Assembly: GCA_963678065.2 (NCBI GenBank)
Contig: CAXXVZ010000003.1
Coordinates: 1,408,001 to 1,472,000, forward strand
Origin: Treponemataceae bacterium
Lineage (GTDB): Bacteria > Spirochaetota > Spirochaetia > Treponematales > Rectinemataceae
Direction: 5' to 3'
DNA: 64,000 nucleotides
Part shown: positions 35,849 to 52,781 of the stretch, one piece after another
Layout of the letters: every line of letters begins with the position of its first letter
Position numbering within the stretch: position 1 is the first letter of the stretch
Program-made: the position numbers and the translations under genes
Notes under the pieces: generated by a model
What the model was told of the DNA's origin: nothing
The model's database searches: none
What the model saw: the letters and a program-made list of their open reading frames with translations, nothing else

Positions 35849-37156
35849 ATGGGCACCAATTCTTCGGATTTTCGATATAATACGGGCGCAACCAGAGTAC
35901 CCTGGGCCGCCGTCGGCGAATCATACAATGCGGACGATGTCATGGAAGTCGTGGAATTCCTCGTCCAGGGCGATGGGACTGAGTACCGCGAGGCTCTCGG
36001 CGACGTGGCGAAGGCCGTGCATGCTCTGGGGAAGCTGGGAAATCCTCCCGGAAAACTGTCTCTCGGGAACACAGTCTCTGCGCTCGAGCGGCACGTTGAC
36101 CAGTACCTCGGCGTGCAGGGGAGCACCTTCATCACGAACGCGACGGCGGGCTTTGAGATCGCCTTCCGCTACGCCAACCTGAAAGAGGGCGACGAAGTGA
36201 TCATCCCGGCGATCACCTTCATCGCGACCATGTCGTATCCGCTCTCCGTGGGGGCGAAGGTCGTTCTCGCCGATGTCGATCCGAAGACGCTCAACCTCGA
36301 TCCCGCAGACGTCGAGAGGAAGATCACGAGCCGCACGAAGATGATCGTGCCCGTCCACATCGGCGGGTATCCGGTGGACATGGACCCGATCATGGAAATC
36401 GCCAGGAAACACGACATCCTTGTCCTGGAAGACGCCGCCCATGGCTTCGGGGCCACCTACAAGGGCCGGCCTCTGGGAACCATCGGCCATTTCGGCGCCT
36501 TCAGCTTCCACGAAGTGAAAAACATCACCTCCTTCGGGGAGGGCGGAGTCCTCGTCTCCAGCCTGCCCTTCCGGGACGAACTGAAAAAGGCGAGATTCCT
36601 CGGCCTCAACATGGCCCGCCAGATTCCCGACTGGCTCTACGATGTCGATGCGCTCGAGGGGAAATACGGGCCTTTCGTCGCGAACAATTCCTCCAGCACC
36701 GAGATGCAGGCCCTCGGGCTCATAAGCCAGCTCAGGCGGGTCGACAGAATCATCGCGAAGCGCCGCGACAACGTGCTGTATGTGAACGGACGGCTCGGAA
36801 AATGCGATGCGCTCCGGGTGCAGCCCGTCGGCGCCGAGGGGTGCAACCCGTCCTACCACCTGTATCTTCTCCAGGTGGATCCTCGGGCGGCCGGGGCGGA
36901 TGTCAGGGTCCTCCGTCAGAAACTGGCGGACAAGGGCGTAACTTCGATCCCTCACTTCGCGCCCCTGTACAAATTCGCGGTGATGAAGCAGCTCGGCTAC
37001 GACTGCGAAGGAATCGCCGCCTCCTGCCCCGTCGCTGAGGACGCCTTCCTGCACCGTTTCACGCACCTGCCGATCTACGGCCTCTCCACGGAGCAGCTCG
37101 ACTACATGTGCGATGCGATCCTGGAATCGGTCGACGAAATGCGGGCGGAAAAATGA
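35849..37156 (+). CDS. DegT/DnrJ/EryC1/StrS-family sugar aminotransferase
   Basis: TNATAG, GDEVIIPAITF, VHIGGYP, EDAAHG, FSFHEVK (PLP Lys)..GEGG; AAGGAG RBS. Confidence 0.9.
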   Translation: MGTNSSDFRYNTGATRVPWAAVGESYNADDVMEVVEFLVQGDGTEYREALGDVAKAVHALGKLGNPPGKLSLGNTVSALERHVDQYLGVQGSTFITNATAGFEIAFRYANLKEGDEVIIPAITFIATMSYPLSVGAKVVLADVDPKTLNLDPADVERKITSRTKMIVPVHIGGYPVDMDPIMEIARKHDILVLEDAAHGFGATYKGRPLGTIGHFGAFSFHEVKNITSFGEGGVLVSSLPFRDELKKARFLGLNMARQIPDWLYDVDALEGKYGPFVANNSSSTEMQALGLISQLRRVDRIIAKRRDNVLYVNGRLGKCDALRVQPVGAEGCNPSYHLYLLQVDPRAAGADVRVLRQKLADKGVTSIPHFAPLYKFAVMKQLGYDCEGIAASCPVAEDAFLHRFTHLPIYGLSTEQLDYMCDAILESVDEMRAEK

Positions 37157-38370
37157 GTTTCTCTGTCGGGGAATCCGGGGCAGTGCGTCTGCGCGGCGCA
37201 CTGAGCGGAAGAGAGCGGGTCCGCGAGGCCATGGCCCACAAAGAGGCTGACAGGGTACCCGTGTTCGATGTCGTGAACAATCCGGGCGTGTACAGGGAGC
37301 TTCTCGGCGCCGAAAATACCTTTTCCGATGGCCCGCCCGCAGTCCGTCTCGCACGGGAACTGGGGCTCGACGCGGTCATGGTGCCTGCGGGCTGCTACAC
37401 CGGCCTCATCAAAAAAGAGAACGAGTGGGTCTCGAAGGATACCTTCAGGGATCGCTTCGGCGCACTGCACAGGGTCATGGAGTCGTCGTGGCCTCTCGGC
37501 GTCGCGGTGGGGGAAGTTCCCCTGGACGCCGCCTTCGCCGATGTTTTTTGGGGGATGGCTGCCGTCAGTCCCGAGGACCTCAGGGCCGTCCGCGAGGCCG
37601 TCGCGGCGGCTCACTCGCCAGGAAAGGACGACGAAGACGAGATCGCCCTCTTCGCAGGTCTGCGGAGCGCCTTCAGCCACCTCTACATAACGGGCGGAAT
37701 CGTCGCCCTGTCCATGCTCATCTACGAGGACCCTGACCTGTTGCACCGCCTCGTCAGGCTCTCCACCGATTTCTGGACCGAAGTCGGACTGCGCGCGATA
37801 GAGGCTGGGGCGGACGCCCTGTATGTCGCCAACGACATGGGCATGAACGGCTCCACGCTGATCTCCCCCGAACATCTGCGGGAATTTTTTCTCCCGGCCT
37901 TCCGCGAACAGTGCGCTGTCTGGAAGCGGGCGGGGGGCAGAGTCATCCTGCACTCCTGCGGCAACATCGAGGCCATCCTTCCCGACCTCGCCTGCATGGA
38001 GATCGAGGGACTCAACAACCTGCAATCCCACGCGGGGATGGACATCGGGCGCGTCAAAAGCCAGTACGGCGGGAAATGGACCTTGTTCGGCAATGTCGAC
38101 GCCACCGAGGTCATGACCTCGCACGATCCTGAACGGATCGAGAAGGCTGTCCTCCAGGTACTGTCGGTGGCCGGCCACGGCGGCGGACTCGTGATCGCCA
38201 CCGACCACTCCTTCCACAAGGGTATCCCCCTCGAGAACGTGCGCCACTTCATCCACTGCGCGAAGCAGCACGGGCGCTATCCCCTGAGACTTCCGGCGGA
38301 GGATCTTTCTTCCGGAGCTTCGGCCGACTCCTCATCCGGGATTCCGCCGGAACAGGACCCGAGGTCATGA
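37153..38370 (+). CDS. Uroporphyrinogen-decarboxylase-fold protein (paralogue 1)
   Basis: RERV..AM.HKEADRVP, NDMG....LISP, LHSCGN, FGNVD, ATDHS..IPLEN. Confidence 0.8.
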   Translation: MSFSVGESGAVRLRGALSGRERVREAMAHKEADRVPVFDVVNNPGVYRELLGAENTFSDGPPAVRLARELGLDAVMVPAGCYTGLIKKENEWVSKDTFRDRFGALHRVMESSWPLGVAVGEVPLDAAFADVFWGMAAVSPEDLRAVREAVAAAHSPGKDDEDEIALFAGLRSAFSHLYITGGIVALSMLIYEDPDLLHRLVRLSTDFWTEVGLRAIEAGADALYVANDMGMNGSTLISPEHLREFFLPAFREQCAVWKRAGGRVILHSCGNIEAILPDLACMEIEGLNNLQSHAGMDIGRVKSQYGGKWTLFGNVDATEVMTSHDPERIEKAVLQVLSVAGHGGGLVIATDHSFHKGIPLENVRHFIHCAKQHGRYPLRLPAEDLSSGASADSSSGIPPEQDPRS

Positions 38371-39473
38371 CCCCGAAGAAGGAATTTCTCGAGAAGGTCA
38401 GGGGGAGCCGCGTTGGCCCTCCCCTCGTCGCCCCCTACATGGGGAATTTTTCCATCGCCTGGTCAGGGATGAGCCTCTCCGCGTGCTACAAGGACGCCGC
38501 GAAGCTCGCCTGCGCGCAGCTTCGCGCATGGGAGCGCTTCGGACAGGATGCCATCGTCGTTCAATCCGACAATTACTACATGGCGGAGGCCTTCGGGGCT
38601 CCCGTCTCGCACGACGAGGGCTGCATGCCGGTTCTGCGCGGCGCTGTCGTGGAAAACCCCGACGACATAGGGCGCCTCGTCCCCGTCGACCCGCGCGTGG
38701 GCGGAAGGATGCCCGTCTACATCGAGGCGATCGCGAGGGTGCGCGAATCCGCCGGTCCGGATGCCGTGATACGGGGATGCGGGACGGGGCCCTTCGTGCT
38801 CGCCGCTCACCTCTGCGGCATCGAGCGTCTCCTCATGTGGATGGCGGAGACGGATTCGGGCCTCGCCGATCACCGCGCCCGACTCGACGAACTCTTCAGC
38901 CTCGGTCTCGAGACCCTCGTCGCCTTCGCGACCGCCCAGCTCGAGGCTGGCGCCACGATCGTCCAGCTGGCCGATTCGCTCGCCTCGATCAACGTGATCT
39001 CGCCCGACATGTACCGGCGTTACGCATTTCCTTACGAGAAACGCTTTTTCGAGGCGATGCGCGGACCCTGCGAAAAGCACGGAGCCCTCGCCCTCCTCCA
39101 TATCTGCGGCGACAATACCCGGGTCTTCGAGGACTTCGTCGCGACGGGGGCCGACATCATCTGCGTCGACCACGCCGCCAGCCTCCGGACGGCCAGGACT
39201 ATTGTCGGGGACAGAGCTTGCCTCATCGGGAACATGGACCCCGCGGGGAATCTCCTCTGGGGAAGCCCCGACGAAGTCTACCGCGAGGCGACGGGCCTTT
39301 TCGATGCGGGCTTGCCCGGGAAGTACATTCTCGGTACGGGCTGCGAGGTTTCGGTGAAGACACCGCCTGAAAATCTGGATGCGATGATACGCGCAGCCCG
39401 CGAGTACGATTGGGGACAGTGCTGCGGAGTCGGCTGTGCCGGCTGCGGACCTGAAAGAGAAGGTGCCCGATGA
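38367..39473 (+). CDS. UroD/MtaA-CmuA-fold protein (paralogue 2)
   Basis: AEAFG, GRMP, GPF, ISPDMY, LHICGD, GNMDP, GTGCEV..TPPEN. Confidence 0.82.
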   Translation: MTPKKEFLEKVRGSRVGPPLVAPYMGNFSIAWSGMSLSACYKDAAKLACAQLRAWERFGQDAIVVQSDNYYMAEAFGAPVSHDEGCMPVLRGAVVENPDDIGRLVPVDPRVGGRMPVYIEAIARVRESAGPDAVIRGCGTGPFVLAAHLCGIERLLMWMAETDSGLADHRARLDELFSLGLETLVAFATAQLEAGATIVQLADSLASINVISPDMYRRYAFPYEKRFFEAMRGPCEKHGALALLHICGDNTRVFEDFVATGADIICVDHAASLRTARTIVGDRACLIGNMDPAGNLLWGSPDEVYREATGLFDAGLPGKYILGTGCEVSVKTPPENLDAMIRAAREYDWGQCCGVGCAGCGPEREGAR

Positions 39474-40624
39474 CGCACAGGGAAGCCGTCGTCGCAGCTC
39501 TGGCGCACAGAGGCACAGGTTTTGTGCCCTACGACCAGTCGAGTCGCTCCTCGGCTATAGAGCTCGAGGCCTATGTCGCCCTGAAAAAGTGCCTGGGATA
39601 CGATTCGCCCAGCACGTGCTTCCTGCGCTCCCACGCGGAGCTGGAAGAGCCCGTCATGGAAAGGCTCGGGATCGACACACAGTTCCTGCGCTCCGTTCCC
39701 GCCTCGGCGTGGCACAAGGACGGCAAAGATGGCAGGGACGAGGTCTTCGTCGATTCCTGGGAGGTTCCATGGCGCAAACGCGCCGATTCTCCGTACTACG
39801 AGCTCGACTTCTCGCCTCTCGCGGAAATGGATCCCGAGAGGGTCCTCGCGTTGGAGTGGCCCCCCCTCGTGACCGGGGATATGGCCGCCGACCTGAAAAA
39901 GAAGGCCGATGTCTGGGGCCGGCGCGGATACGCGCTCTTCTGTGATCAGATCGGCGCAGGCATCTTCGAGCGGGCCTGGTATCTCCGGGGCTTCGAGCAG
40001 ATGCTGACGGATCTGGTGCTGGAGAAGGACTGGACCCACCGTTACTTCGGGAAGATTCTCGAACGCCAGATCGAGGGTTACGCCGCGGTCTTCGACGCGG
40101 TGGGCGACTCGATACTCGGTGTCCTCATGACCGACGATATCGCGACGCAGGACAGCCTCATGATGTCGAGAGAAACCTACCGGGAGATGCTCCTCCCCTA
40201 CCACAGAGACCTGATCGGGTACATCCGCAGCCGGGGTGGCAAGGTCATCTTCCACAGCTGCGGAGCGGTGTATCCCTTCATTCCCGATCTCATCGAGGCA
40301 GGAGTGGAGATCCTCCATCCGATCCAGAGATCCGCAGCGGGCATGTCGCCGGAGAGAATCAAGCGCGAATACGGCGCGGATCTCGTGCTCTGGGGCGCAG
40401 GCTGCGATACGGCTTCCCTTCAGAAGGCTCGGCCTGACGAGATTCGCGACGACGTTCTTCGCTCCCTCGACGCGCTCTCCAAGGATGGTGGCTTCGTCTA
40501 CACGACCACGCACTGCATCCAGCCAGGTACGCCGCCTGAGAACATTCTGGCCATGGCCGACGCGCTCGCACAGTGGAACGGGAGGACCGCAGGCGCGGAA
40601 TACACGGGGGCGCACCATGCCTGA
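39470..40624 (+). CDS. Uroporphyrinogen-decarboxylase-fold protein (paralogue 3)
   Basis: LRGFEQML.D, DDIATQDSLMMS, FHSCGA, LWGAGCD, THCIQPGTPPENI. Confidence 0.82.
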   Translation: MTHREAVVAALAHRGTGFVPYDQSSRSSAIELEAYVALKKCLGYDSPSTCFLRSHAELEEPVMERLGIDTQFLRSVPASAWHKDGKDGRDEVFVDSWEVPWRKRADSPYYELDFSPLAEMDPERVLALEWPPLVTGDMAADLKKKADVWGRRGYALFCDQIGAGIFERAWYLRGFEQMLTDLVLEKDWTHRYFGKILERQIEGYAAVFDAVGDSILGVLMTDDIATQDSLMMSRETYREMLLPYHRDLIGYIRSRGGKVIFHSCGAVYPFIPDLIEAGVEILHPIQRSAAGMSPERIKREYGADLVLWGAGCDTASLQKARPDEIRDDVLRSLDALSKDGGFVYTTTHCIQPGTPPENILAMADALAQWNGRTAGAEYTGAHHA

Positions 40625-41729
40625 TCTCCGCGTCGGAAGAGTGGAACTGGAGCGCGTGTGCGCCTCTGTCTTCGCCGCGCTCGGAATGCCCGGAAACCAG
40701 GCCGAGGATTCGGCGCGGGTTCTGGTGGCGGCGGACGCGAAGGGCATACAAAGCCACGGCGTCGCGAGGCTCTGGCGCTACGTCAACGGCATCAGGACGG
40801 GCGTGATGCGCCCGACCACCTGTGCCGTCTGCGTGCACAGGACGCCCATGTCCTTCGTGCTCGACGCGCAGGGAGGGATCGGCCTCTCCGTCGGCGTGGA
40901 AGCGATGCGGGAAGTCATAACCCTCGCACGGGATCGCGGCGCGGCATTCGCGTCTGTCCGCGACTCGAACCACTTCGGCATCGCGGGTTACTACGCGGAG
41001 ATGGCCCTGCCGGAGGACATGATCGGCATCGCCATGACGAACACGGCCGCCCTTGGCGTCCCGACCTTCGGCTGCGACGCGATGTTCGGAACCAACCCGA
41101 TCGCGGTCGCCGTCCCGGCCGGGAAGGAGGCTCCCTTCGTTCTGGACATGGCGACGACCGTCGTCACCCGGGGAAAAATCGAGACCTGCGAGCGGGAGGG
41201 CGCGCCTATACCGGCGGGCTGGGCCGTCGATACGGCCGGACAGACCACAAGGGATCCGCGGTCTCTGCTTCTCGACATGCTCTACCAGCGCGGCGGAGGA
41301 ATCCTGCCTCTCGGCGGCGAGGGAGAGAAGTTCGGCGGCCACAAGGGCTACGGATTGGGAGTCCTCGTGGACATCATGACCGCGCTCACTTCGGGTGGCG
41401 TCTTCGGAAAGGCAGTCATGGACAGCGAGGCGACATCGGCGCGCGTCTGCCATTTTTTCGGCGCCATCAGGATCGATCTGTTCCGCGAGCCTGCCATCTT
41501 CAAAGCCGACATGGACAGGATGCTCGGGGACTTGCTCTGCGCAAAACCGGCGGAAGGACAGGACGCTGTCCTCTATGCCGGGCTGAAAGAATACAGGCAG
41601 GAACAGGAAAGCCGGCGCTTGGGCGTCAGGCTATCGGGAAAGGTCTGGGAACGGCTGTCGGGAATCGCGCGCGACATCGGCGTGGTTCTTCCAGACGCCA
41701 TCGCGGAGGAAATTGTATATGGCAGATAA
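40617..41729 (+). CDS. Ldh_2 family (malate/L-lactate/ureidoglycolate) dehydrogenase
   Basis: SHGVARL, SNHFGIAG, FGTNPIA, LDMATT, GHKGYGL. Confidence 0.9.
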   Translation: MPDLRVGRVELERVCASVFAALGMPGNQAEDSARVLVAADAKGIQSHGVARLWRYVNGIRTGVMRPTTCAVCVHRTPMSFVLDAQGGIGLSVGVEAMREVITLARDRGAAFASVRDSNHFGIAGYYAEMALPEDMIGIAMTNTAALGVPTFGCDAMFGTNPIAVAVPAGKEAPFVLDMATTVVTRGKIETCEREGAPIPAGWAVDTAGQTTRDPRSLLLDMLYQRGGGILPLGGEGEKFGGHKGYGLGVLVDIMTALTSGGVFGKAVMDSEATSARVCHFFGAIRIDLFREPAIFKADMDRMLGDLLCAKPAEGQDAVLYAGLKEYRQEQESRRLGVRLSGKVWERLSGIARDIGVVLPDAIAEEIVYGR

Positions 41730-42657
41730 AGAAAGCGGGCGCAGGCTTCCATTCCTGCGGCGGAAGACCCGCATCCGTCACAAGAGGAAGATGAGCGACA
41801 ACATCGCGGGCTACCTCTTCATCCTCCCCAACCTCACGGGATTCCTCGTGTTCACCATCTTCGCCATCGGATTCTCCTTTTACATGAGCTTCACCGACTG
41901 GAGCATCATCAAGCAGTTCAAGAACATAAAGTTCGTGGGCTTCAGCAACTACGCGAATCTCCTGCACGACACCTGGTTCCATGCATCGCTCGTCAACAAT
42001 CTCTGGTTCCTCCTTGTCATTCCGATCGAGATATTCTTCGCTATGGTCTTCGCCTTCATCCTGAACGACAAGGTGTTCTGCAAAAACGTCTTCCGCACCA
42101 TCCTCTACCTTCCGAACATAACGAGCGTCGTCGCGATATCTGTTATCTGGTTCACCCTCTTCAACCCCCGCTCGGGTCCCGTCAACGAAGTGCTGCGCAG
42201 AATCGGAATAGAGAATCCCCCGCAGTGGCTGTCGAGCACGACATGGGCGAAACCCACGATCGGCCTCCTCTGGATCTGGAAAACCGTCGGCTACTACACC
42301 CTCCTCTACCTGGCCGCCCTCCAGAGCATTCCGAGGCAGCTCTACGAGGCCGCGACGGTCGACGGCGCCTCCCTCGTCCAGCAGTTTTTCAAGATCACGA
42401 TGCCTCTCCTCTCTCCAACCACCTTCATGCTCACCATCCTCTCCTTGATGACCATCTTCCAGGACTGGTCCCTCATACAGATCATGACGGAAGGGGGGCC
42501 GGGAACCTCGACCTACACTATCGGGTATTACATCTACTACGCGGCCTTCAGGAAAATGAAGATGGGATACGCTTCGAGCATCGCCTGGGTGCTCCTCGTC
42601 TTCATCATGGTCTTCACCTTCGTCCGGTTCCGCGTCGAAAAATCCAGGGACTACTGA
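41719..42657 (+). CDS. CUT1 ABC permease
   Basis: LYEAATVDGAS, TEGGPG, GYASSIA. Confidence 0.9.
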   Translation: MADKESGRRLPFLRRKTRIRHKRKMSDNIAGYLFILPNLTGFLVFTIFAIGFSFYMSFTDWSIIKQFKNIKFVGFSNYANLLHDTWFHASLVNNLWFLLVIPIEIFFAMVFAFILNDKVFCKNVFRTILYLPNITSVVAISVIWFTLFNPRSGPVNEVLRRIGIENPPQWLSSTTWAKPTIGLLWIWKTVGYYTLLYLAALQSIPRQLYEAATVDGASLVQQFFKITMPLLSPTTFMLTILSLMTIFQDWSLIQIMTEGGPGTSTYTIGYYIYYAAFRKMKMGYASSIAWVLLVFIMVFTFVRFRVEKSRDY

Positions 42658-42667: not shown

Positions 42668-43594
42668 ATGAAGGAACCCACACTGAAAACGACCGCGGCT
42701 GACAGTCCGGACCCGAAACGAAGCTCGGGCGGAACGAAGAAAACTGCTGGGGCAAAAGACTACCGGGTGCTCAAGCTCGCGCAGAAAACCTTCCTCACAC
42801 TTTTTATGACTCTGGCGGCGGCGACGATGCTCCTCCCCTTCCTCTGGATGATTTCGAGCTCGTTCAAGGATTCCGTCACGATGTTCAAGTTTCCCATCGA
42901 GTGGATACCGAAGGAATTCAACTTCTCCGGCTATCTGCAAGTCTGGAACGGGGACGCCGATTTCCTCCTGTTCTTCCTCAATTCCATCAAGATCACCGTG
43001 ATCGCGGTGATCGGCACGGTGATCTCCTGCTCCATGGGAGGATACGCCTACGCCAAGATCGACTTCGCGGGCCGCGACGCGATCTTCCTCGCAAAGCTCT
43101 CCACGATGATGATTCCCTCGCAGCTCACGATGCTGCCGACCTTCATGGTCTTCAAGTGGCTCGGCCTCATCAACACCCACGTCGCTATCTGGCTTCCATT
43201 CTGCCTCGGGCAGCCCTTCGGCACCTTCCTCATGCGGCAGTATTTCCAGAAGATTCCGGACGAGCTCATCGATTCTGCGCGGATCGACGGCGCCGGGCAT
43301 TTCCGGACATTCCGCTCGATCGTCCTTCCGAATGTCCGCGCGGGACTCTCCGTCCTCATCTTCCTGTACTTCGTCTGGGCATGGAATTTCTACGAAGGGC
43401 CGCTCCTCTACATCCGCTCGGTCAAGCTCTACACCCTGCCCCTGGCTCTGAAATTTTTCTCGGATGAATTCAGCACCAATTATACGACCATCATGGCCGC
43501 GAGCGTCTCGATGACGCTGCCTGTCATAGCGATATTCATCGGCCTGCAGAGGTTCTTTATCGAGGATCTAACTTCAACGGGGTTGAAGGGATAG
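42668..43594 (+). CDS. CUT1 ABC permease
   Basis: ELIDSARIDGAG, WNFY, TGLKG end. Confidence 0.9.
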   Translation: MKEPTLKTTAADSPDPKRSSGGTKKTAGAKDYRVLKLAQKTFLTLFMTLAAATMLLPFLWMISSSFKDSVTMFKFPIEWIPKEFNFSGYLQVWNGDADFLLFFLNSIKITVIAVIGTVISCSMGGYAYAKIDFAGRDAIFLAKLSTMMIPSQLTMLPTFMVFKWLGLINTHVAIWLPFCLGQPFGTFLMRQYFQKIPDELIDSARIDGAGHFRTFRSIVLPNVRAGLSVLIFLYFVWAWNFYEGPLLYIRSVKLYTLPLALKFFSDEFSTNYTTIMAASVSMTLPVIAIFIGLQRFFIEDLTSTGLKG

Positions 43595-45087: not shown

Positions 45088-45100
45088 GAATGGAGAACCG

Positions 45101-46213
45101 ATGCCCGCGATGAAAGTCCTGGAAAACAGACAGGTATTCAAGAACGATCAGTACAACACCTTCCCCAGCCTCGCCCGTATGCGCGACGGGAGAATCATCC
45201 TGGTCTTCCGCCAGGCGGAGAACAGCCTCGCGCGCTACGGGGCCGTCACCCACGTCGACCCATCCTCCCGGGTCGTTTCGATGATCTCGGACGACGAGGG
45301 ACAGAGCTGGGGCCCCGTGACGGAGGTCTACAACGACGAGATGGGCGAACAGGATCCCTGCATAAGCTGCCTGTCGGACGGGACCCTCATCTGCACCTTC
45401 TTCCGGTGGAAGGTCGTCCCCATCGCCGAAAAGGAATCGCTCGGTCCCTCATACGCGTACTGCGGGCGCGACATCTTCGGCATCTGGTCGGCCGTCCATG
45501 TCGGCACCTCCTGCATGCGCTCCCTCGACGACGGAGCCAGCTGGGAGGGCCCCTGGCAGATTGCGCCGACGGGATTCGAGGCCCCGATGGCGCTGCGCGG
45601 CAACATCGTGGAGCTGCCCGGCGGAAGGCTCCTCGCCCCCCTCTACGGCGGCAGGCGCTTCGGCGAACTCTCCCGCTGCCTCGTCATGGGCTCCGACGAC
45701 AGGGGACAGAGCTGGGCGCCGGTCGGAGAAGTCCCCGGCGACCCGGAGCATCACTACCTCGAACCCTTCCTGTACCGGGCTCCCTCGGGCAGGCTCGACA
45801 TCCTCATGCGGACCCAGACCGACTTCAAAAAATTTCCCTTCGACGAAACCTACCGCAACCTCCACGTCGCGAGTTCGGGCGACGACGGAGTGACCTGGAC
45901 GAAGCCTGAGGCCGCCGGGCTCTTCTGCCCGAATCCGGCCCACGTACTTCCGCTTCCGGGCGGCAGGATTCTTCTGTCCTACGGACAGCGCAGGGCTCCC
46001 AAGGGAATCGAGTACCTCGTCACCGACGCCGAGAATCCCGAGTATCGGGACGAGCTCGCCAGCTACGCGCGGTACGCTGTGGACGGCGATCTCGGCTACA
46101 CGAGCGCCGTCCTCCTCGCCGACGGCGACGTCATGATAGTGTATTACGTCACGGATGAAGATTCCGGGACGAGCATAGGCGCAACCATACTGAGAGAGGA
46201 CAACAATGCGTAA
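45101..46213 (+). CDS. Sialidase-like BNR/Asp-box beta-propeller protein
   Basis: Four Asp boxes (SDDEGQSW, SLDDGASW, SDDRGQSW, SGDDGVTW); N-terminal FP motif; GDLGY; no signal peptide. Confidence 0.82.
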   Translation: MPAMKVLENRQVFKNDQYNTFPSLARMRDGRIILVFRQAENSLARYGAVTHVDPSSRVVSMISDDEGQSWGPVTEVYNDEMGEQDPCISCLSDGTLICTFFRWKVVPIAEKESLGPSYAYCGRDIFGIWSAVHVGTSCMRSLDDGASWEGPWQIAPTGFEAPMALRGNIVELPGGRLLAPLYGGRRFGELSRCLVMGSDDRGQSWAPVGEVPGDPEHHYLEPFLYRAPSGRLDILMRTQTDFKKFPFDETYRNLHVASSGDDGVTWTKPEAAGLFCPNPAHVLPLPGGRILLSYGQRRAPKGIEYLVTDAENPEYRDELASYARYAVDGDLGYTSAVLLADGDVMIVYYVTDEDSGTSIGATILREDNNA

Positions 46214-47120
46214 ATTGGCCGATTTCGCGGGGGTGTATCCCGCCCTGGTCTCACCCGTCGACTCGCGCGGGAAAGTCGACGAAGCGGCCCTGCGCGGTCT
46301 CGTGAGCTGGCTGGGCGGAACTGGCATCGACGGCCTCTACGTCTGCGGAGGAACGGGAGAAGGGCTTCTCCTTCCGGTGCAGACTCGCAAGCGCATTCTC
46401 GAAATCGTGAAAGACGAGGCGAAATCCGTCACGGGGAACAAGGCGCTCCGGATCATCGCGCACATCGGAGCCGTGGAGAGCGCGTACATCGCCGAACTGG
46501 CAGGCCACGCCGCGTCCCTCGGCGTCGACGCGGTTTCCGCGATTCCACCGATCTATTTTTCCTACACGAAGGATGACATCGTCCGCTACTACGAGTGGCT
46601 GTCCGGAATCTGCGAAGTGCCCCTCATCATCTATGCGTCGGCACAGGCGGGAGTCACGTTCACCGCCGATATGCTGAAGACGCTCGCCGAGCAGCCCATG
46701 CTCCGCGGCATCAAATTCACGGGCTACGACTTCTACTCCCTCATGCAGATGCGCGCTGCCGTGAGCGAGGATTTCACCATACTCAACGGTGGCGACGAAG
46801 TGCTGCTCTATGGAATGATGGCGGGAGCGGACGGAGGAATCGGGGCCACCTACAACATCATGCCCAGGCAATTCTGCGAGCTGTACCGGGCCTTCCGGGA
46901 CAGCGATATGGTCCTCGCGCGGCGGATCCAGGAAAAGATCAACGCCGTCGTCAGGGAAATCGTCCGGTATCCAGTGTTCGGCTCCGTCAAGGCGACGCTC
47001 GGCTTCATCGGCCACGAGGCCGGAGACCCGATCTTCCCGAACAGGACTCTGACGGAGACGGAAAAGGGCTCTCTGCGCAGAGGCCTCGCGGCCATCGGCT
47101 ATCCAGGAGATTACCTATGA
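46206..47120 (+). CDS. N-acetylneuraminate-lyase-like DHDPS-family aldolase
   Basis: GLYVCGGTGEG, AISAIPP-like SAIPPIYF, GIKFT..DFY, NGGDE, GGIGATYN. Confidence 0.8.
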   Translation: MRKLADFAGVYPALVSPVDSRGKVDEAALRGLVSWLGGTGIDGLYVCGGTGEGLLLPVQTRKRILEIVKDEAKSVTGNKALRIIAHIGAVESAYIAELAGHAASLGVDAVSAIPPIYFSYTKDDIVRYYEWLSGICEVPLIIYASAQAGVTFTADMLKTLAEQPMLRGIKFTGYDFYSLMQMRAAVSEDFTILNGGDEVLLYGMMAGADGGIGATYNIMPRQFCELYRAFRDSDMVLARRIQEKINAVVREIVRYPVFGSVKATLGFIGHEAGDPIFPNRTLTETEKGSLRRGLAAIGYPGDYL

Positions 47121-48865
47121 AAATCGCGGGGGAAGTCGAAGGAAACGGCTCTGTCGTCGTCATGCTGCACGACAGCGCTCCGTCCGCTCTTCTCATACTG
47201 GAAAAAACCTTGTTCTCGTCGTTCCGGCATCTGGGAATTCCGTTCTGCGTGGTCTCGGTCGGGGAAGACCTGACCGACGCCCTCTTCGAGGAGTTGATCC
47301 TGCGGCATCCTGCCCTCGTCTTTCCCCAGTCGGGCACCTGCGGGAGGCTCTCCTCGTCGAGGCTCTCCAACCTCGTCCGGGCGCACGAGGCCGGCCTCGG
47401 CCTTATTCTCTACGAACCCCGGACCGGACTGCTCCCGGGGCTCATCCGGGACCTGTTCTCTCTCGACAAAGAAACTCCCGAGCCGGTCGGAAGCTTCGGC
47501 ACCGTCACGGTGGAGGACAATAGTCACTACATCACCTGGCTCAAAGGCTCAGGCGAAGAGTTGCGCTCCGATTCACCTGCCGAATACTCGATCGTCGACG
47601 GCGGGCGCCCCGAAGGTAAGCTCCTTCGCAGCGAAGGCGGCCACAGTCTCATGCTCCTCTCCTCGCGCCGCTCGGGCCGCGCCGTCCTCTTCCCCTTCTC
47701 CATCGAACTCTACACTATGGAATATCTCGGCCACGCCTGCGGGCTGGACGACGTGTTCTCGCGGAGCCTCGTCTGGTCGGCGCGCAAGCCCTTCTTCACG
47801 TGGAGCATGCCCCCGGTGGCGGGCCTCGTCATCGACGACTGCTCCGGATCCTACGACCACTTCGGCTACCTCGATACGCTGAACGGCCACGGATGGAGCC
47901 CCTACCTCTCGCTCTTCACCGACACGATCGATGAGATCGCCCACGAAGATCTGGGGCTGGATTCGCTGCGGCTCAAGCGCGGCTGGGAGGAGGAAAGCCT
48001 CGAAATCGGCTTCCATGCGCTGCGCTACAACGAATCCTTCTGCTTCGACCACCTCGGACGGCGTCCCTTGAACCGCGAGGAGCTCGACGACAGGTTCGCG
48101 CGCTGGGATCACTACCTCGCGAAGTGGAAGGTCCGGCACAGTCCCTGGCTGCATCCGCACTTCGGCGAGATAAGCTCGGCTTCCATTCCGTACTACCGCG
48201 AGCGGGGGATCGAGTTCGTCACCTACCTTCTCCCCCTCGACGCCGCGTGGTTCGATGTGCCCGCCACGATACCGCACATCTCTCCCCAGCCTCCCTACGG
48301 CCACAACGGATACTACATCAATGAGCTGCCGGGCTTCCCCGACCTTTTGGCCTTCAACTGTGTTCTCGACCGGAAAACGAGGATGAGCTCCGACTATGTC
48401 GTGAAAACCGATTATCTCTGGGGAAATACCTGTTTCTGGAGCGAATCGGAGTTCATCGACATCGGAGCGGCCTCCCGGACGCTCGCGGATCAGATAAAGC
48501 GGGGACTGGATTCCGGATTCTACGGAGAGGGCGCCACGCACGAACAGAGAATAGCCTGCCTCCGGAAAGGAGAAATCCGGGAAATTTTCGAGGAGACAGA
48601 CCGTCTCCTCGCGCGGCACAATCCGGAACGACGCCGCTTGGGCGAGATCATGGCCATCGAAAAGAAGCGGCGGAACAGCCGCCTCGTCGCGGTGGACCTG
48701 AACGCCTCCGGGACCTCCCTGCGCTACTCGTTCTCGGCCGAAGACGCGGTCGGAACGGAGTGTCAGATTCATACGGAAGGTCCGGAGGGCTGGCCGCGCA
48801 CGCACCGCCACGCGGTTGCGGGCAGGCAGGCTTCGCTCGCCCTACCCCGGACGACAGGGAACTGA
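47117..48865 (+). CDS. Hypothetical protein with a possible polysaccharide-deacetylase-like domain
   Basis: ATG overlaps lyase stop; LVIDDCSG, EIGFHA and PHFG resemble NodB/CE4 motifs 1-3. Confidence 0.65.
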   Translation: MKIAGEVEGNGSVVVMLHDSAPSALLILEKTLFSSFRHLGIPFCVVSVGEDLTDALFEELILRHPALVFPQSGTCGRLSSSRLSNLVRAHEAGLGLILYEPRTGLLPGLIRDLFSLDKETPEPVGSFGTVTVEDNSHYITWLKGSGEELRSDSPAEYSIVDGGRPEGKLLRSEGGHSLMLLSSRRSGRAVLFPFSIELYTMEYLGHACGLDDVFSRSLVWSARKPFFTWSMPPVAGLVIDDCSGSYDHFGYLDTLNGHGWSPYLSLFTDTIDEIAHEDLGLDSLRLKRGWEEESLEIGFHALRYNESFCFDHLGRRPLNREELDDRFARWDHYLAKWKVRHSPWLHPHFGEISSASIPYYRERGIEFVTYLLPLDAAWFDVPATIPHISPQPPYGHNGYYINELPGFPDLLAFNCVLDRKTRMSSDYVVKTDYLWGNTCFWSESEFIDIGAASRTLADQIKRGLDSGFYGEGATHEQRIACLRKGEIREIFEETDRLLARHNPERRRLGEIMAIEKKRRNSRLVAVDLNASGTSLRYSFSAEDAVGTECQIHTEGPEGWPRTHRHAVAGRQASLALPRTTGN

Positions 48866-48871: not shown

Positions 48872-49984
48872 ATGCCGGCACCATCATCGTCGCAAGTCTG
48901 CGCGCTCAAGGACCTGAAGATTCTCGACGGCATACGGAAGGTCTTCTTCACGACGACGGGACTGGCCATCTCTTTCCATTATCCGGGCGGAGACGATTAC
49001 GATTTCTACCCCATCGTCGAGAAAAACCCCTACTGCGAGGCCATCCAGTGCAGCCGCGAGGGTATGGCCCGCTGCCTCAAGAGCGACCAGGATGCCCTCG
49101 TTTCGGCGCGAACGCAGGGCAAGCCTTTCATCTACACCTGCCACGCCGGGCTCCTCAACGTCGTCATCCCCCTCATTTACAAAGGGCGCGATCTGGGAGC
49201 CCTCTTCATCGGGCAGCTGTTCACGCGCAGACAGGATGAATCCGACTTCGATCCGATTTTCCGCGGACTGGAAGCCCTCGGGCTGAAACGGGATGAGCTC
49301 TTCGAATCGTTCAAAAAAGTGAAGGTTTTCGACCACAGGGAGCTGATGCTGGCCATAGACCTCCTTTCTCTCATGTCCAACTACATCATTTCCGTCGAGG
49401 ACGAGATGTACCTGCAATCCGAGCTGTATGAAAAGGAGAAGGAGATACTGCGCTACGAGAATACGCAGATGCAGCTGAAGAACGACCTGCAGAAACTGAG
49501 CATCCGCATCCTCGAAGACAAGATGCAGATAAACTCGGAACAGAATCCCGCGAGATCCGGAAGCGCTCAGAAACGGGCCATCGTCATCCGCGCACAGGAA
49601 TTCATCGAGGAGAATTACGACAGGGACATTTCGCTCTCCGATGTCGCGCGCGCGGTCTACCTCTCGCCGAATTATTTCAGCATGGTTTTCAAGGAGTTCA
49701 CCTGCGACAGTTTCAGCGATTATCTCAACGAGGTGCGCATCCGGAAGGGTAAGGAGTTGCTGCGCGACACGGAACTCCCGATCAAGCACATCGTCGCGCG
49801 CGTGGGATTCAAGGACTACAACTATTTCAACCGGACTTTCAGGAAGTTGGTGGGCATCCCGCCCGGCCTCTACAGAGATTCAGTATCGGCCGCGGCGCAG
49901 GCCTCGCCTCCGGCGGCCGCGAGGGAGGCCGAGGGCGAGCCGCGACCGGGCGGTGGGGATTCCCCCGAAGGAGAACGATCATGA
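48872..49984 (+). CDS. PocR-sensor AraC-family regulator
   Basis: YC..I, CLKSD, YTCHAGL, FIGQ (PocR domain); C-terminal AraC HTH. Confidence 0.9.
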
Positions 49985-50913
49985 GAAAACGGAGTGCCAT
50001 CGCGAAAGAGTGGTGGGATTATACGACACTGGACGACGGGATACTGAACGACGCGGCGCGGTTGAGCGCTGAGGATCTCGGGCAGCTGTCGCGGCCCGGA
50101 TTCACGGTGCGGATCTACGATACCCGCGAGGATTTCTTCCTCGCGGAAGCCCTGGAATATATCGAAGCCTGGCGGGCGGCGACTCCTTCCAGACCTGCGG
50201 GAATATGCGGTCCCATCGGCCCGACCGAGCAATTGCCCCTCGTGGCCCGCCTCGTCAACGAGTTGGGGATCAAGCTCGACAATTGCCATTTCTGGGGCAT
50301 GGATGAGTGGGTCGACGCGGATGGCCGCTCGGTCGGCCCCGATTTTCCCCTCGGCTTCGCGAAGGCCGACATGGATCTCTGCTTCGGCAGGATTCGCCCG
50401 GAATTGGCGATGCCGCGTGAGAACCTCCATTTCCCGAGCACGTCGGGGCTCGCGGCCTACTCCGGGAGCTTCGATACGTTCAGATGCGCGCTCATGCAGG
50501 GAGGTCAGGGCGAGATCAAGCACTGGGCCTTCAACGACCCGGTCCGCCGCGAAGGAGCCTACGCCGACGAGCCCCCGACGCCGGCCGAGTACCGCAGACT
50601 CGGGGCCAGGATGGTGGAGCTTCACCCCGCGACGATCCTCCAGAACGCGAGGACTTCAGGCGGCGGCGTAGTCTCCGCCATTCCCGGAAGGGCACTCTCC
50701 GTCGGCCCGCGCGAGACCTGGAAGGCCGAGACTGTTTCGATCTGGCATCCCGGCTGGCACGACAATCCCTTCGGTCAGCGCCTCACCGCCTTCATGATTT
50801 CCAAGCGCATCCCCGATTCGTCGGTGCCCATGTCGCTCCTGGCCGACCACCCCGATGTCCGCTTCAATTATCTGCGAAGCGGAATCGGCAGCTGCGCCGT
50901 CGAGATGCACTGA
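49981..50913 (+). CDS. Divergent NagB/glucosamine-6-phosphate isomerase-family protein
   Basis: [39 protein letters not shown]. Confidence 0.72.
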
Positions 50914-50926: not shown

Positions 50927-51709
50927 ATGAGCTGCACGGTATTCGCGATAGGCTGCCATCCGGACGACATCGAATTCATGATGTCCGGCACACTCTTCCT
51001 CCTGAAAGAGGTGGGATGCGAGCTGCACACCATGAACCTCGCGAACGGGTGCTGCGGCTCGACCAGATACTCCGCGGAGGAAACCGCGACGACCCGTTCC
51101 CGGGAAGCCGCCGCCGCTGCCGCGTATCTCGAATCGACGCACCATCCGAGTCTCGCCGGCGATCTCGAGGTCTTCTACGAGGATGCACTGATCCGCCGCG
51201 TCGCCGCTGTCGTACGGGAGGTCGCCCCCGACATTCTCCTCCTGCCCTCCCTCGAGGACTACATGGAAGACCACATGAACACGGCGCGCGTAGCGGTCAC
51301 CGCGGCCTTCTGCAGAGGCATGCCCAATTACCGGACCGATCCGGAGCGGAGCATCGTCGAAAAGGATGTCGCGGTGTACCACGCTCTCCCGCACGGGCTT
51401 CGCGACGGAATGGGCAGAATTGTGCGCGCCTCGTCGTACGTGAACATCGATCCGGTGATCGGACTGAAAAAAAGGATGCTCTCCTTCCACGAGAGTCAAA
51501 AGGACTGGCTGGACGAAAGCCAGGGGATGGATTCCTACCTGGAAAGCATGGTTCTGATGGCGCGCGAGGTCGGAATCATGAGCGGAAAATTCACGTACGC
51601 CGAGGGATGGCGCCCACACAACCACCTCGGTCTCTGCTCCGCCGGCTACGATCCCCTGGGAGCTGTGCTTTCTGGATCGATCTACTCCGCGGGAGGACGA
51701 CATGGATAA
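50927..51709 (+). CDS. PIG-L/LmbE-family N-deacetylase
   Basis: GCHPDDIE, R.REA..AA, DYMEDH, FHESQ, YAEG. Confidence 0.88.
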   Translation: MSCTVFAIGCHPDDIEFMMSGTLFLLKEVGCELHTMNLANGCCGSTRYSAEETATTRSREAAAAAAYLESTHHPSLAGDLEVFYEDALIRRVAAVVREVAPDILLLPSLEDYMEDHMNTARVAVTAAFCRGMPNYRTDPERSIVEKDVAVYHALPHGLRDGMGRIVRASSYVNIDPVIGLKKRMLSFHESQKDWLDESQGMDSYLESMVLMAREVGIMSGKFTYAEGWRPHNHLGLCSAGYDPLGAVLSGSIYSAGGRHG

Positions 51710-52781
51710 GGTACGGTATGGACTCGTGGGATTCGGAGGCATCGCTGAGCACCGCATCGCGCGGGAAGGTTTCGGCCTGGACGGGGAAAGATTTTCAGGC
51801 AACGCGAACGCGATTCTGGTCGCGGCCACGGATACCGCCGGATCGAGAAGAGAGGCCGCGGCCGCGCTGGGAATAGAGTGGTGCCCCTCTGTCGGGGAGC
51901 TAGTCGCGCGCGCCGACATCGACGCGATCATCGTAGCGACGAACAATGCATCGCACTACGGGCTCGCGGAAATGGCTCTCTGCGCAGGCAAACATGTCTT
52001 CGTCGAGAAACCGCTCGCCACGCGGGCCGACGATGCGCTCGGGCTGAGACGCCTCGCTTCCGACCGGCGACTCAGTCTCGGAGTCGATCACATGATGACG
52101 CAGAATGCCTTCAACATTGAAGCACGGAGGTTGGTTGAGGAGAAGGCGATCGGCGATGTCGCCGACATCTGCCTGCACATGGAGTTCCTTTTCGGCTCGA
52201 CCGAGGCGGAGGCAGCGTCGTGGCGATGCTCGCGGCCGGATGAGTTGGGAGGGCCGATCGGCGATGTGGGATCGCACTGCCTGTACATGGCGGAGTTCCT
52301 GACCGGCAGCCGGATTTCTTCGATCGGCTGTGTCTATCTTCCGCCGACTCTCGGCATCGTGGTCGAAAATGGCGCGTTCATCCAGTTCTCGATGAAAAAC
52401 GGCCTCGGAGGATCGGCCCGCGTCGCCTTCAACCAGGCGCGGGGCGGTCTTTCCGGAACGATACGGAACCTTGGATACGAGATATACGGAACGGGCGGCG
52501 CTCTGCGGTCCCACGGAACGCTGTTCCAGCTATCCGGTCACCCCGATGAGCCGGTGAAGATCGGGCTCGAGCTGGATCGTGACGGTGTCGTCGACTCCGT
52601 CTCTCTCTCCGAACCGCGGAACATCTACCAGGCGCAGATATCGTCGCACGCGGACTCGATCATCGCGGGAAGGCCGCAGGACGGATGGGAGGGAATCAGA
52701 AACCTCGCCCTCCTCGAACTCTGCCACGACTCGGCGAGACAGGGAGGCGCGATGCTGGAGGTTCCCGAGCGATTCGCCTGA
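51702..52781 (+). CDS. Gfo/Idh/MocA oxidoreductase
   Basis: GLVGFGGIA, GKHVFVEKPLA, GGPIGDVGSH. Confidence 0.9.
   Translation: MDKVRYGLVGFGGIAEHRIAREGFGLDGERFSGNANAILVAATDTAGSRREAAAALGIEWCPSVGELVARADIDAIIVATNNASHYGLAEMALCAGKHVFVEKPLATRADDALGLRRLASDRRLSLGVDHMMTQNAFNIEARRLVEEKAIGDVADICLHMEFLFGSTEAEAASWRCSRPDELGGPIGDVGSHCLYMAEFLTGSRISSIGCVYLPPTLGIVVENGAFIQFSMKNGLGGSARVAFNQARGGLSGTIRNLGYEIYGTGGALRSHGTLFQLSGHPDEPVKIGLELDRDGVVDSVSLSEPRNIYQAQISSHADSIIAGRPQDGWEGIRNLALLELCHDSARQGGAMLEVPERFA

Follow-up and report, generated by a model that had tools for sequence, protein, structure and literature searches.

A spirochaete operon that may break down N-acylated diamino sugar acids from bacterial surface glycans

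A tightly packed, co-directional cluster of 15 genes occupies positions 35849 to 52781 of the window, i. e., the whole stretch of 64,000 nucleotides of Treponemataceae bacterium DNA analysed here. We tentatively read it as an operon for scavenging the surface glycans of bacteria and breaking down an N-acylated diamino sugar acid in them. The most coherent substrate would be a 5,7-di(acylamino)-nonulosonate similar to legionaminic or pseudaminic acid. In a wider form, namely that the operon degrades a hexose unit with a 2-acylamino and a 4-amino group and without phosphate, whatever its origin, the reading is fairly probable. If true, the bacterium would import and digest the two-amino surface sugars of other bacteria by a route for which our literature search found no described pathway. 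In line with this reading, PMC10483923 describes nonulosonates as common in anaerobic sludge EPS, and PMC6052044 describes necromass recycling by spirochaetes. The original prediction of nonulosonate catabolism stands with regard to the genes, their catabolic direction, their co-occurrence and the C4 type of the aminotransferase, while its nonulosonate or 9-deoxy substrate is still conjecture.

35773..35801, + strand: weak candidate for a sigma70-like promoter in front of the operon (9/12 match)
35849..37156, + strand: DegT/DnrJ/EryC1 PLP aminotransferase, clade A (Pfam, E 4e-77)
37153..38370, + strand: URO-D/MtaA-fold protein 1, H267-S-C269 (Pfam)
38367..39473, + strand: URO-D/MtaA-fold protein 2 (Pfam; TIGR01463 at 179 bits, cut-off 235)
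39470..40624, + strand: URO-D/MtaA-fold protein 3, H262-S-C264 (Pfam)
40617..41729, + strand: Ldh_2-family 2-hydroxyacid oxidoreductase (Pfam, E 2e-109)
41713..42657, + strand: carbohydrate ABC permease 1, start TTG 41713 or ATG 41719 (Pfam)
42668..43594, + strand: carbohydrate ABC permease 2 (Pfam)
43621..44994, + strand: SBP_bac_1 solute-binding protein (SBP) with signal-peptide-like N-terminus (Pfam)
44995..45100, + strand: intergenic RNA hairpin 3' of the SBP gene (folding z -4.08)
45101..46213, + strand: six-blade BNR propeller, GH33-like, signal peptide absent (Pfam BNR_2)
46206..47120, + strand: NanA-like class I aldolase (Pfam DHDPS)
47117..48865, + strand: 582-aa de-N-acylase with GATase1-like domain, CE4-type barrel and beta domain (AlphaFold, fold match)
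48872..49984, + strand: PocR-sensor AraC transcriptional regulator (Pfam)
49981..50913, + strand: NagB-fold deaminase/isomerase; its family is tight and distinct and has an altered phosphate site (AlphaFold, fold match)
50927..51709, + strand: PIG-L/LmbE zinc de-N-acetylase, HPDD and DH motifs invariant (Pfam)
51702..52781, + strand: Gfo/Idh/MocA oxidoreductase (Pfam)

As originally described, the 15 ORFs share one direction, on the + strand. Nine of the 14 junctions are overlaps of 4-17 nt; at four others 6-26 nt separate the genes, and at the last the spacing is 106 nt (counted with the PIG-L start at the ATG at 50927, which follows an RBS). GC3 is 0.74-0.85 in every gene. The gene order is genuine and no product of the assembly, since a 42-kb contig from a separate run covers 35557-53000, at 180 differences. 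The 106-nt gap past the SBP gene forms a long hairpin (-46.1 kcal/mol, 0/200 shuffles), probably a stabilising or attenuating element, while sigma70-like sites are no more frequent than chance (3 found versus 3.8 expected in shuffles). Pfam domains agree with the gene identities assigned earlier, as do AlphaFold folds for the CE4-like and NagB-like proteins, for which neither Pfam nor NCBIfam gives a match. As noted before, the 15 genes include none for a kinase, NanE, a nucleotidyltransferase or a glycosyltransferase, judged by their Pfam domains. Pfam also reveals no hexosaminidase, ceramidase-like amidase, AAC(3)-like or MttB gene, and an importer ATPase gene is likewise absent from the cluster. 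The missing kinase is meaningful only for C6 of the amino sugar, however, because PfkB, FGGY or Dha kinases flank the cluster in several relatives.

In the proposed route, which builds on established gene identities and folds and in which all substrates and the step order are inferred, a nonulosonate glycoside would (1) be imported by the ABC importer, (2) yield the free acid by action of the cytoplasmic propeller and (3) be cleaved by the NanA-like lyase into pyruvate and a 2,4-di(acylamino)-2,4,6-trideoxyhexose. The Agd3/CE4-like enzyme would (4) free the C4 amine, DegT in reverse would (5) transfer it to an oxo-acid, and the Gfo/Idh/MocA protein would (6) reduce the 4-ketone. Finally, PIG-L would (7) deacetylate N2 and the NagB-like enzyme would (8) deaminate the 2-amino sugar, still without phosphate, to a ketohexose, which may then receive a phosphate at C1 from kinases with genes outside the operon. 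A Leg/Pse-type entry substrate is most coherent because the operon combines a NanA-like lyase with a GH33-like propeller, and the tally of two deacylases, two amine-removing enzymes, one ketoreductase and one aldolase fits a substrate with two N-acyl groups. The many extra deacylases of relatives (creatininase, cyclase, M20, amidohydrolase, ceramidase-like) fit variable N-acyl groups. Ldh_2, which scores under the cut-off of every NCBIfam subfamily, is used in none of the eight steps, which counts against the route; the original scheme had no role for it or for the UroD trio.

The NagB-like model (pLDDT 90) matches glucosamine-6-phosphate deaminases and retains the catalytic Asp, His and Arg. 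In 92 of 92 family sequences, Lys208 is replaced by Asp and TGGTP by [IV]GPTE, whereas 7/7 canonical-type NagB controls retain the Lys. Because these phosphate-site residues are changed throughout the family, the substrate appears not to be 6-phosphorylated, as the original prediction had it, and we propose from the sequence that the enzyme acts on a non-phosphorylated 2-amino sugar. PIG-L is its partner gene and the proposed N2 (nonulosonate N5) deacetylase; in the 80 best NagB-like loci, a PIG-L gene lies close by 62 times, a DegT gene eight times and a NanA-like gene once. The Gfo/Idh/MocA protein is proposed as a keto-sugar reductase acting after transamination.

The operon's DegT (motif FSFHEVKN, N-terminal extension) belongs to a clade of its own (SH-aLRT 100 in a quick tree) and is a putative reverse C4 transaminase. 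Its PLP-lysine segment matches WecE best (56-57 bits), ahead of QdtB (36), 2oga (34; presumably DesV) and WbpE (24), in line with the predicted C4 type; a control C3-type fragment in the same comparison placed QdtB-like entries on top. The protein is under every NCBIfam equivalog cut-off, including PseC, LegC and WecE, and PseC (2fn6) and PglE-like structures rank low among its PDB matches. Sister clade C has, in its SFCQxK motif, the Gln with which Pcryo_0638, a bacillosamine aminotransferase, binds the 2-acetamido group; the paper on that enzyme (PMC8040287) also warns against deducing ligand binding from alignments. Alanine dehydrogenase genes close to clade-A DegT (L331 and L423) fit amine disposal. 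In Clostridia, orphan DegT orthologues are found as well; five clade-A DegTs (Clostridia and a spirochaete) have no catabolic markers within the fetched DNA, and five genomes tested have no NagB-like orthologue, only paralogues at 25-31 %. At L329, the PLP lysine of DegT is lost, gfo, nagB-like, pigL and ldh2 are missing from the locus, and the matching genome G460, of unstated completeness, gave no NagB-like match either; this is a single case.

The CE4-like model (pLDDT 94) matches Agd3/NDST1/PelA, with D240-D241, H300, H348 and H475 invariant, and we propose from this fold a candidate N4 (nonulosonate N7) deacylase. The propeller, proposed to be a cytoplasmic ulosonidase, has invariant E221, R237, R297 and Y333 and lacks the RIP motif. 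The lyase retains T48, Y137, K165, G189, D191 and E192, with S47G and with A/T/S at S208. E192 of NanA contacts O8/O9 of Neu5Ac (PMC3014015); since it is kept, the 9-deoxy substrate originally suggested has no sequence marker. PfkB and mannitol-dehydrogenase-family genes beside the cluster in L099 and L330 would suit a fructose product with its own 6-OH and also count against a 9-deoxy route. PMC10795189 reports Leg5,7diNAc glycosides made using a P. multocida aldolase.

Synteny was assessed in 12 non-redundant loci with a CE4-like orthologue of at least 40 % identity (Spirochaetia where named), which are not independent since most are kin. NanA-like is present in nine and propeller plus SBP in eight; clade-A DegT is linked in 11, two of them on a separate contig of the same genome beside the UroD trio. 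NagB-like lies in seven loci and elsewhere in the genome in two more, versus 6/400 sampled genomes of the phylum. G001 holds all 15 genes at 49-81 % identity, the SBP is 64-72 % identical between orthologous loci, and the cluster is rare among sampled relatives. The genes thus co-occur in other genomes, a point on which the original prediction had staked itself beforehand. Its nonulosonate substrate fared less well, as the DegT/Gfo/PIG-L/NagB core is found more often without NanA than with it; in other phyla, the core lies next to GH20-like or GH123 glycosidases instead. In Bacteroidales L094, L103 and L126, clade-B DegT, Gfo, PIG-L and NagB-like adjoin GH20-like genes (in L094 also a GH123 gene), and in G289 (L423) clade-A DegT adjoins a GH20-domain gene.

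The genome has 36 URO-D matches in all. Protein 2, the most MtaA/CmuA-like of the trio (H245, C247 and C326 invariant), is a probable corrinoid methyltransferase. In G464 (L437), the orthologous cluster is immediately preceded by genes for a corrinoid protein, a RACo activator and a PocR-AraC regulator. Because genome context points to B12-dependent demethylation, the trio is probably an optional demethylase, which would serve O-/N-methylated variants with corrinoid/RACo proteins encoded elsewhere.

It is rather unlikely that the window instead holds a composite necromass locus of two co-regulated, non-sequential modules: SBP/propeller/NanA/UroD for a methylated or otherwise modified ulosonate, and DegT/Gfo/CE4/PIG-L/NagB-like for a 2,4-diamino hexose of the bacillosamine or AAT-Gal type, either free or liberated by a glycosidase. 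Adjacent but separate modules are conceivable because G459 and G461 hold NagB-like/PIG-L/Gfo at a separate locus with clade-C DegT, a combination also found in Victivallales; CE4 plus clade-A DegT occur without NanA in Planctomycetes and in L331, and the UroD trio is missing from four of the 12 loci. However, clade-A DegT, NanA-like, CE4 and NagB-like are four consecutive genes in L250 and L328, without importer or UroD genes in between, and the window's cluster has no hexosaminidase to yield a free diamino hexose.

Gfo plus DegT pairs of known pathways (WbpB/WbpE, GnnA/GnnB, NtdC/NtdA) work at C3, which counts against the C4 reading and for a C3-amino substrate. Such a substrate, e. g., the Kdo-linked 2,3-diamino-2,3-dideoxyglucose lipid A backbone or 2,3-diacetamido sugars, would require GnnA/GnnB- or WbpB/WbpE-type chemistry in reverse, with propeller and lyase acting on Kdo. 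Weak NCBIfam matches of Gfo, including UDP-GlcNAc 3-dehydrogenase and glycoside 3-dehydrogenase models, ceramidase-like amidases in sister loci and the neighbours that suit a fructose product agree with it; we nonetheless deem it improbable, with a DegT lysine segment that is WecE-like, not QdtB/WbpE-like, and neither ceramidase-like amidase nor hexosaminidase in the window.

A role in breaking down aminocyclitols, or amino sugars that are N-methylated or stem from aminoglycosides (of the kanosamine, streptamine or rhizopine type), is more doubtful still. Sister loci contain clade-D DegTs (FSFQASKN), AAC(3)-like domains and MttB/MtmB methyltransferases, and BtrR-type enzymes are among the PDB matches of DegT, but the window's DegT is of clade A, its cluster lacks AAC(3)-like and MttB genes, and such substrates need neither two de-N-acetylases nor an ulosonate lyase.

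It is very unlikely that the cluster degrades plain Neu5Ac without an epimerase, with NanA yielding ManNAc, PIG-L mannosamine and the NagB-like enzyme fructose, and with DegT/Gfo/CE4 as passengers. In its favour, no other protein of the genome matches E. coli NanA as well by BLAST as the window's lyase, BLAST finds no NanE in the genome, and the Neu5Ac-contacting G189, D191 and E192 are retained. Against it, clade-A DegT and CE4 belong to the cluster more consistently than NanA does, and another NanA-like gene, with higher scores on NanA models, adjoins an AGE epimerase. Because that locus and canonical NagA/NagB (NagB 59 % to E. coli) exist separately, plain Neu5Ac is, judging by these genes, probably handled elsewhere in the genome. 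That the cluster builds an amino-sugar product or a surface glycan is scarcely credible: aminoglycoside and O-antigen biosynthesis do use DegT, Gfo and PIG-L families (also seen in PDB matches), but importer, glycosidase-like propeller, lyase and deaminase fold bear out the predicted catabolic direction, and nucleotidyltransferase, dehydratase, synthase, acetyltransferase, glycosyltransferase and exporter are all absent from the cluster.

Set against known systems, the proposed diamino-sugar acid catabolism by this operon resembles canonical Neu5Ac catabolism (NanT or SatABCD, NanA, NanK, NanE or AGE epimerase, NagA, NagB), with which it shares an importer, a sialidase-like enzyme, a class I aldolase that has the catalytic residues of NanA, and a de-N-acetylase plus NagB-fold deaminase within one catabolic unit. 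It differs in having PIG-L and Agd3/CE4-like deacylases in place of kinase, epimerase and NagA, a remodelled NagB-like phosphate site, an added DegT + Gfo pair and a lyase under the NCBIfam NanA cut-offs, besides the separate NanA, AGE, NagA and NagB genes. The 2,7-anhydro-Neu5Ac route (NanOx/YjhC beside NanA) likewise unites Gfo/Idh/MocA, ABC binding protein and NanA-like lyase; YjhC (6o15), however, matches the operon's Gfo weakly (E 4e-7, far down the list), and operon-type Gfo accompanies DegT, NagB-like and PIG-L in genomes without a nearby lyase. The C3 pairs also couple a Gfo/Idh/MocA dehydrogenase to a DegT aminotransferase, but are biosynthetic and C3-specific, whereas the window's DegT motif is C4-like. 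With MtaA/CmuA corrinoid systems the UroD trio shares the URO-D fold, the H-x-C metal motif and the G464 context, despite scoring under the family cut-off and the lack of a corrinoid partner in the window's cluster. The CE4-like protein shares the predicted three-domain architecture and invariant Asp-Asp and histidines of Agd3 (CE18)/PelA/NDST, at only 9-13 % identity, without signal peptide and in a catabolic context. Finally, in contrast to Leg/Pse/bacillosamine biosynthesis (PseB/C/H/G/I, LegB/C/H/G/I, PglF/E/D; Pcryo_0638), the operon would run in the opposite direction, without nucleotide-sugar enzymes and with a DegT of its own clade, while sharing with it a C4-type DegT and, by hypothesis, the 2,4-diacetamido-2,4,6-trideoxyhexose intermediate.

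The 15-gene operon is real, conserved, undescribed and catabolic, and it is assembled from known folds.

35849 to 52781, + strand: operon of 15 ORFs

Our best reading, to which we would give slightly less than an even chance, is the catabolism of nonulosonates of the legionaminic/pseudaminic acid (Leg/Pse) type, that is, 5,7-di(acylamino)-nonulosonates, with the substrates inferred from the observed folds, residues and synteny. The gene families named in the original prediction were borne out for the 15 ORFs by Pfam and folds, while two genes, encoding a NagB-like protein of 310 aa and a CE4-like protein of 582 aa, gave no Pfam or NCBIfam match and the former none to TIGR00502. Nine of the 14 junctions overlap, four are gaps of 6-26 nt, and the last is a gap of 106 nt 3' of the SBP gene that contains a strong hairpin. 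Among the soluble proteins of the operon, a clear signal-peptide-like N-terminus is confined to the SBP. The locus is also spanned by a 42-kb contig from run X6, with differences of about 1 %. Judging by its closest homologues, the host is probably a spirochaete. By Pfam, NanK, NanE, AGE epimerase and NagA are all absent from the 15 genes.

All 15 genes recur in another genome (G001, L247/L248) with 49-81 % identity and in nearly identical order. Searching with the CE4-like alignment turned up 15 loci of ≥40 % identity, or 12 once three duplicates were removed; the original prediction had expected the genes to co-occur in other genomes, and they do so in these 12 non-redundant loci, which are kin and hence not independent. 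A DegT aminotransferase of clade A (the clades being defined by their PLP-lysine motif) is linked in 11 of the 12 (in two cases it is on a different contig, next to the UroD trio), the NanA-like lyase is present in nine, propeller and SBP in eight, and the UroD trio in seven. The NagB-like gene lies inside seven of the 12 and elsewhere in the genome for two more. The locus is accessory: none of 60 closer relatives searched yielded the CE4-like gene, and among 400 sampled genomes of the phylum a lyase orthologue occurred in none and the NagB-like gene in six. The modules are separated in two genomes (G459 and G461), which counts against the best reading and is in keeping with a two-module locus, a reading that we regard as rather unlikely. 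At L329:70-1380 (the L268 locus), a clade-A DegT without the PLP lysine was observed, in a locus also without gfo, nagB-like, pigL and ldh2.

The DegT enzyme contains the PLP Asp and Lys and a WecE/ArnB-type FSFHxxK segment, with the lysine motif FSFHEVKN as compared to FSFHETKN in WecE and FSFHAIKN in ArnB, and scores under the curated equivalog cut-offs (WecE 204 < 375, PseC 191 < 424, ArnB 163 < 631, LegC 151 < 420 bits). When its 50-residue lysine segment was ranked, WecE came top at 56-57 bits with C3 enzymes below, and a control in which another fragment passed through the same ranking returned QdtB-like entries first. On the other side, the Gfo+DegT pairs known to us are C3-acting, which counts against the best reading; chemistry at C3 nevertheless appears improbable. 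For Gfo, there is no close relative among solved structures, and its assignment as the 2,7-anhydro-Neu5Ac oxidoreductase NanOx/YjhC was rejected, the corresponding entry (6o15, E 4e-7) ranking under some 40 other Gfo/Idh/MocA entries. Four DegT motif groups occur in such loci, often two per locus: A (FSFHEVKN, the window's), B (FSFHSLKN), C (FSFCQSKH), and D (FSFQASKN). A catabolic marker was present in 12/22 clade B loci versus 4/49 DegT loci outside the motif groups, a descriptive comparison, since the markers were picked from these same loci; moreover, two of the four (L088, L089) are clade-A genes, truncated and left unassigned by the script. Clade-A DegTs of Clostridia are orphans, which counts against the best reading. 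In L331 and L423, alanine dehydrogenase is a neighbour of DegT-A. Clade C carries a Gln matching that of the bacillosamine aminotransferase Pcryo_0638, which according to an excerpt of the source contacts the 2-acetamido group, the same excerpt cautioning against deducing ligand binding from alignments (PMC8040287).

The NagB-like protein has the predicted fold of a glucosamine-6-phosphate deaminase (pLDDT 90; Foldseek E 4e-16; hhalign 94.5 % versus NagB). Its D108, H181, and R224 align to Asp72, His143, and Arg172 of E. coli NagB, residues whose roles in that enzyme are here assumed, and are invariant in 92/92 sequences. The TGGTP loop and Lys208, which we take to be the phosphate binders of NagB, are replaced in 92/92 by [IV]GPTE and by Asp (D261, the residue just past the hhalign match end), respectively; the positions of NagB Asp141/Glu148 are V/I/T179 and D186, and the Lys is kept in 7/7 canonical-type NagB controls. 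This tight and widespread family is represented by at least 593 GTDB stretches, from PVC, Bacteroidota, Chloroflexota, and Spirochaetota. The best 80 of these matches share 66-75 % identity, and within 10 kb of them PIG-L was found at 62 loci, DegT at 8, a Gfo orthologue at 7, and propeller, lyase, and CE4-like gene at 1. DegT shares the cluster for 3/6 unbiased NagB-like matches of the phylum. The NagB-like protein coexists with canonical NagB in that the window's own genome carries its own NagA/NagB; canonical NagB was above cut-off in 3/5 genomes tested. A NagB-like orthologue was absent from five genomes tested, which counts against the best reading. In PIG-L, whose PDB matches are BshB1 and diacetylchitobiose deacetylase, the HxDD and DH zinc motifs (H11, D13, D14, D115, H116) are invariant in 58 sequences.

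In relatives, this core of DegT, Gfo, PIG-L, and NagB-like protein is followed or flanked by kinases, namely FGGY (G001), PfkB (L099, L330, L435), and Dha kinase (L424). The PfkB and mannitol-dehydrogenase neighbours would fit a 6-OH ketose, which counts against the best reading. At L424:15178-19999, the NagB-like gene is directly followed by dihydroxyacetone kinase DhaK, DhaL, and a PTS-type phosphotransfer fusion. The front ends vary by lineage: GH20-like plus GH123 in Bacteroidales, a GH20-domain gene in one genome (G289), propeller plus lyase in spirochaetes, and DUF4838 genes in Armatimonadota and one metagenome contig. Extra deacylases also recur (creatininase, cyclase, M20, amidohydrolase, ceramidase-like). 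AAC(3)-like domains, some about 480 aa, recur in catabolic loci (L021, L092, L108, L257, L258), that of L092 being under the resistance-family cut-offs; aminocyclitols as substrates seem quite improbable. Sister loci moreover encode 600-700-aa proteins without Pfam match (L261:4847-6661, L098:6415-8199, L094:188-2266, L423:16849-18927), which are candidates for further deacylases or glycosidases.

The propeller is a BNR_2 Asp-box propeller whose E221 and R237 (catalytic Glu and second triad Arg) align with TEC..MRN of 2bf6 (profile E 3e-14). In all of 39 sequences R297 and Y333 are conserved without exception, and by their spacing they may be the third triad Arg and nucleophile Tyr of GH33. 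The RIP motif with the first triad Arg is missing and YNxFP stands there, likewise in the uncharacterised 5hx0, the closest solved relative; true sialidases come next, at profile level. The 582-aa protein is predicted to combine a GATase1-like domain with a CE4-type barrel (pLDDT 94) that has the Asp-Asp and metal histidines, and its best whole-protein fold matches are Agd3, NDST1, and PelA. In 13/13 sequences aligned to E. coli NanA, the lyase retains the Schiff-base Lys165, Tyr137, Thr48, and Gly189/Asp191/Glu192 and carries S47G, S208 being retained in 1/13, and it scores below the NanA equivalog cut-offs (218 < 281, 186 < 382 bits). As an excerpt of PMC3014015 describes E192 as the O8/O9 contact, the lyase is without any mark of a 9-deoxy substrate, which counts against the best reading. 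A canonical aldolase serves in Leg5,7diNAc glycoside synthesis, according to an excerpt of PMC10795189.

A second NanA-like gene, on another contig of the same genome, is grouped with an AGE epimerase, GntR, and an ABC importer; its scores with the NanA models are 243 and 219 bits (window lyase: 218 and 186). Together with NagA/NagB, this locus provides a plausible route for plain Neu5Ac, and plain Neu5Ac as the operon's own substrate is very improbable, for all the NanA residues kept in its lyase. The locus (L407, G000:C2:388000-399100), which also holds an MtaA-like URO-D gene and two genes of the DHDPS family, one of them 36 % identical to E. coli NanA, probably handles plain sialic acid; here too, a UroD gene is a neighbour. 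Biosynthesis is scarcely credible: Pfam and NCBIfam revealed no dehydratase, NeuB-type synthase, CMP-transferase, or glycosyltransferase among the 15 genes. A third amino-sugar-acid locus (L408, G000:C3:1374000-1394000) contains DHDPS-family genes, YhcH, a ceramidase-like gene, an FGGY-like kinase, a NagA-like amidohydrolase, a divergent NagB paralogue without Pfam match, a class-III aminotransferase, SDR, Gfo, and an ABC importer. The operon's surroundings in the window comprise:

3168-12396 and 54202-55398: M20 peptidase, molybdopterin xanthine-dehydrogenase-like gene, and YgeW knotted carbamoyltransferase (above cut-off); purine-catabolism-like
12664-13182: IS200-like (Y1) transposase
14354-23636: catabolic cluster with two-component pair, mandelate-racemase-family enzyme, SDR, and ABC importer
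27512-35362: sugar-acid cluster with ABC importer, IlvD/Edd dehydratase, D-2-hydroxyacid dehydrogenase, and convergent LacI and DHDPS-family aldolase
52815-54074, - strand: diaminopimelate decarboxylase-like gene, convergent with the operon end

Within the UroD trio, uro2 has the URO-D fold with an H-x-C motif and a distal Cys, which we take to be metal ligands, and scores 179 < 235 bits for the MtaA/CmuA family. The genome encodes 36 URO-D matches, small B12-binding proteins, and one corrinoid activator (RACo), none of these corrinoid partners lying in the window's cluster; about 70 sugar ABC permease matches besides the URO-D matches point to a carbohydrate-scavenging specialist. In G464, the DNA immediately upstream of the orthologous DegT encodes a corrinoid protein, RACo, another URO-D protein, CobW, and PocR-AraC. 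N-demethylation of amino sugars is suggested by methyltransferase genes of the methylamine type that neighbour catabolic DegT genes (MttB-family in L146, L429, L431; MtmB plus corrinoid protein in L424).

The Leg/Pse group of nonulosonates is marked by an amine at C7, the position indicated by a C4-type transaminase that acts downstream of a NanA-type lyase. In the Leg/Pse reading, the importer would bring in an ulosonate glycoside, which, once hydrolysed, would be split by a retro-aldol reaction into pyruvate and a 2,4-di(acylamino) hexose. The CE4-like protein, the companion of DegT-A, would then deacylate N4, followed by reverse transamination and ketoreduction; after N2 deacetylation by PIG-L, the companion of the NagB-like protein, the free amino sugar would be deaminated, with C1 phosphorylation afterwards in trans. 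This route has no step for Ldh_2, which counts against it. The core would be common to relatives because hexosaminidase front ends would supply the same diamino hexose class directly. More tentatively still, we propose a dedicated Leg/Pse-type pathway, with the propeller as pseudaminidase/legionaminidase and the UroD trio as sugar demethylase, whose products would enter a core that spans phyla and needs no kinase (reverse C4 transaminase, ketoreductase, PIG-L, phosphate-independent NagB-like deaminase). Through this core, anaerobes might mineralise rare amino sugars of the 2,4-diamino and 6-deoxy types from the surface glycans of bacteria.

Legionaminic, pseudaminic, and bacillosamine-type sugars are well-studied surface decorations. 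Titles and abstract openings, covering few subscription journals, yielded neither a catabolic pathway for Leg, Pse, or bacillosamine nor a description of a DegT/PIG-L/NagB catabolic unit. Excerpts of two sources tabulate biosynthetic enzymes and methylated derivatives of Leg/Pse (PMC13317340) and describe nonulosonates as common in sludge EPS (PMC10483923). If the Leg/Pse reading is true, the operon would be a sink for such sugars and bacillosamine-type ones, and testable roles would follow for three uncharacterised groups, the NagB-like family, the Agd3-like cytoplasmic deacylase, and 5hx0-type propellers. Glycobiology would gain a useful reagent from any glycosidase, lyase, or binding protein that is specific for Leg/Pse. 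Under the two-module rival, too, the phosphate-independent deaminase and reverse-DegT core would represent an undescribed amino-sugar pathway. As compared to the canonical nan/nag pathway, whose AGE epimerase and NagA/NagB are found at other loci of the genome, outside the operon, the latter is not a member of the nan system: it resembles a sialic-acid locus but has a different lower pathway.
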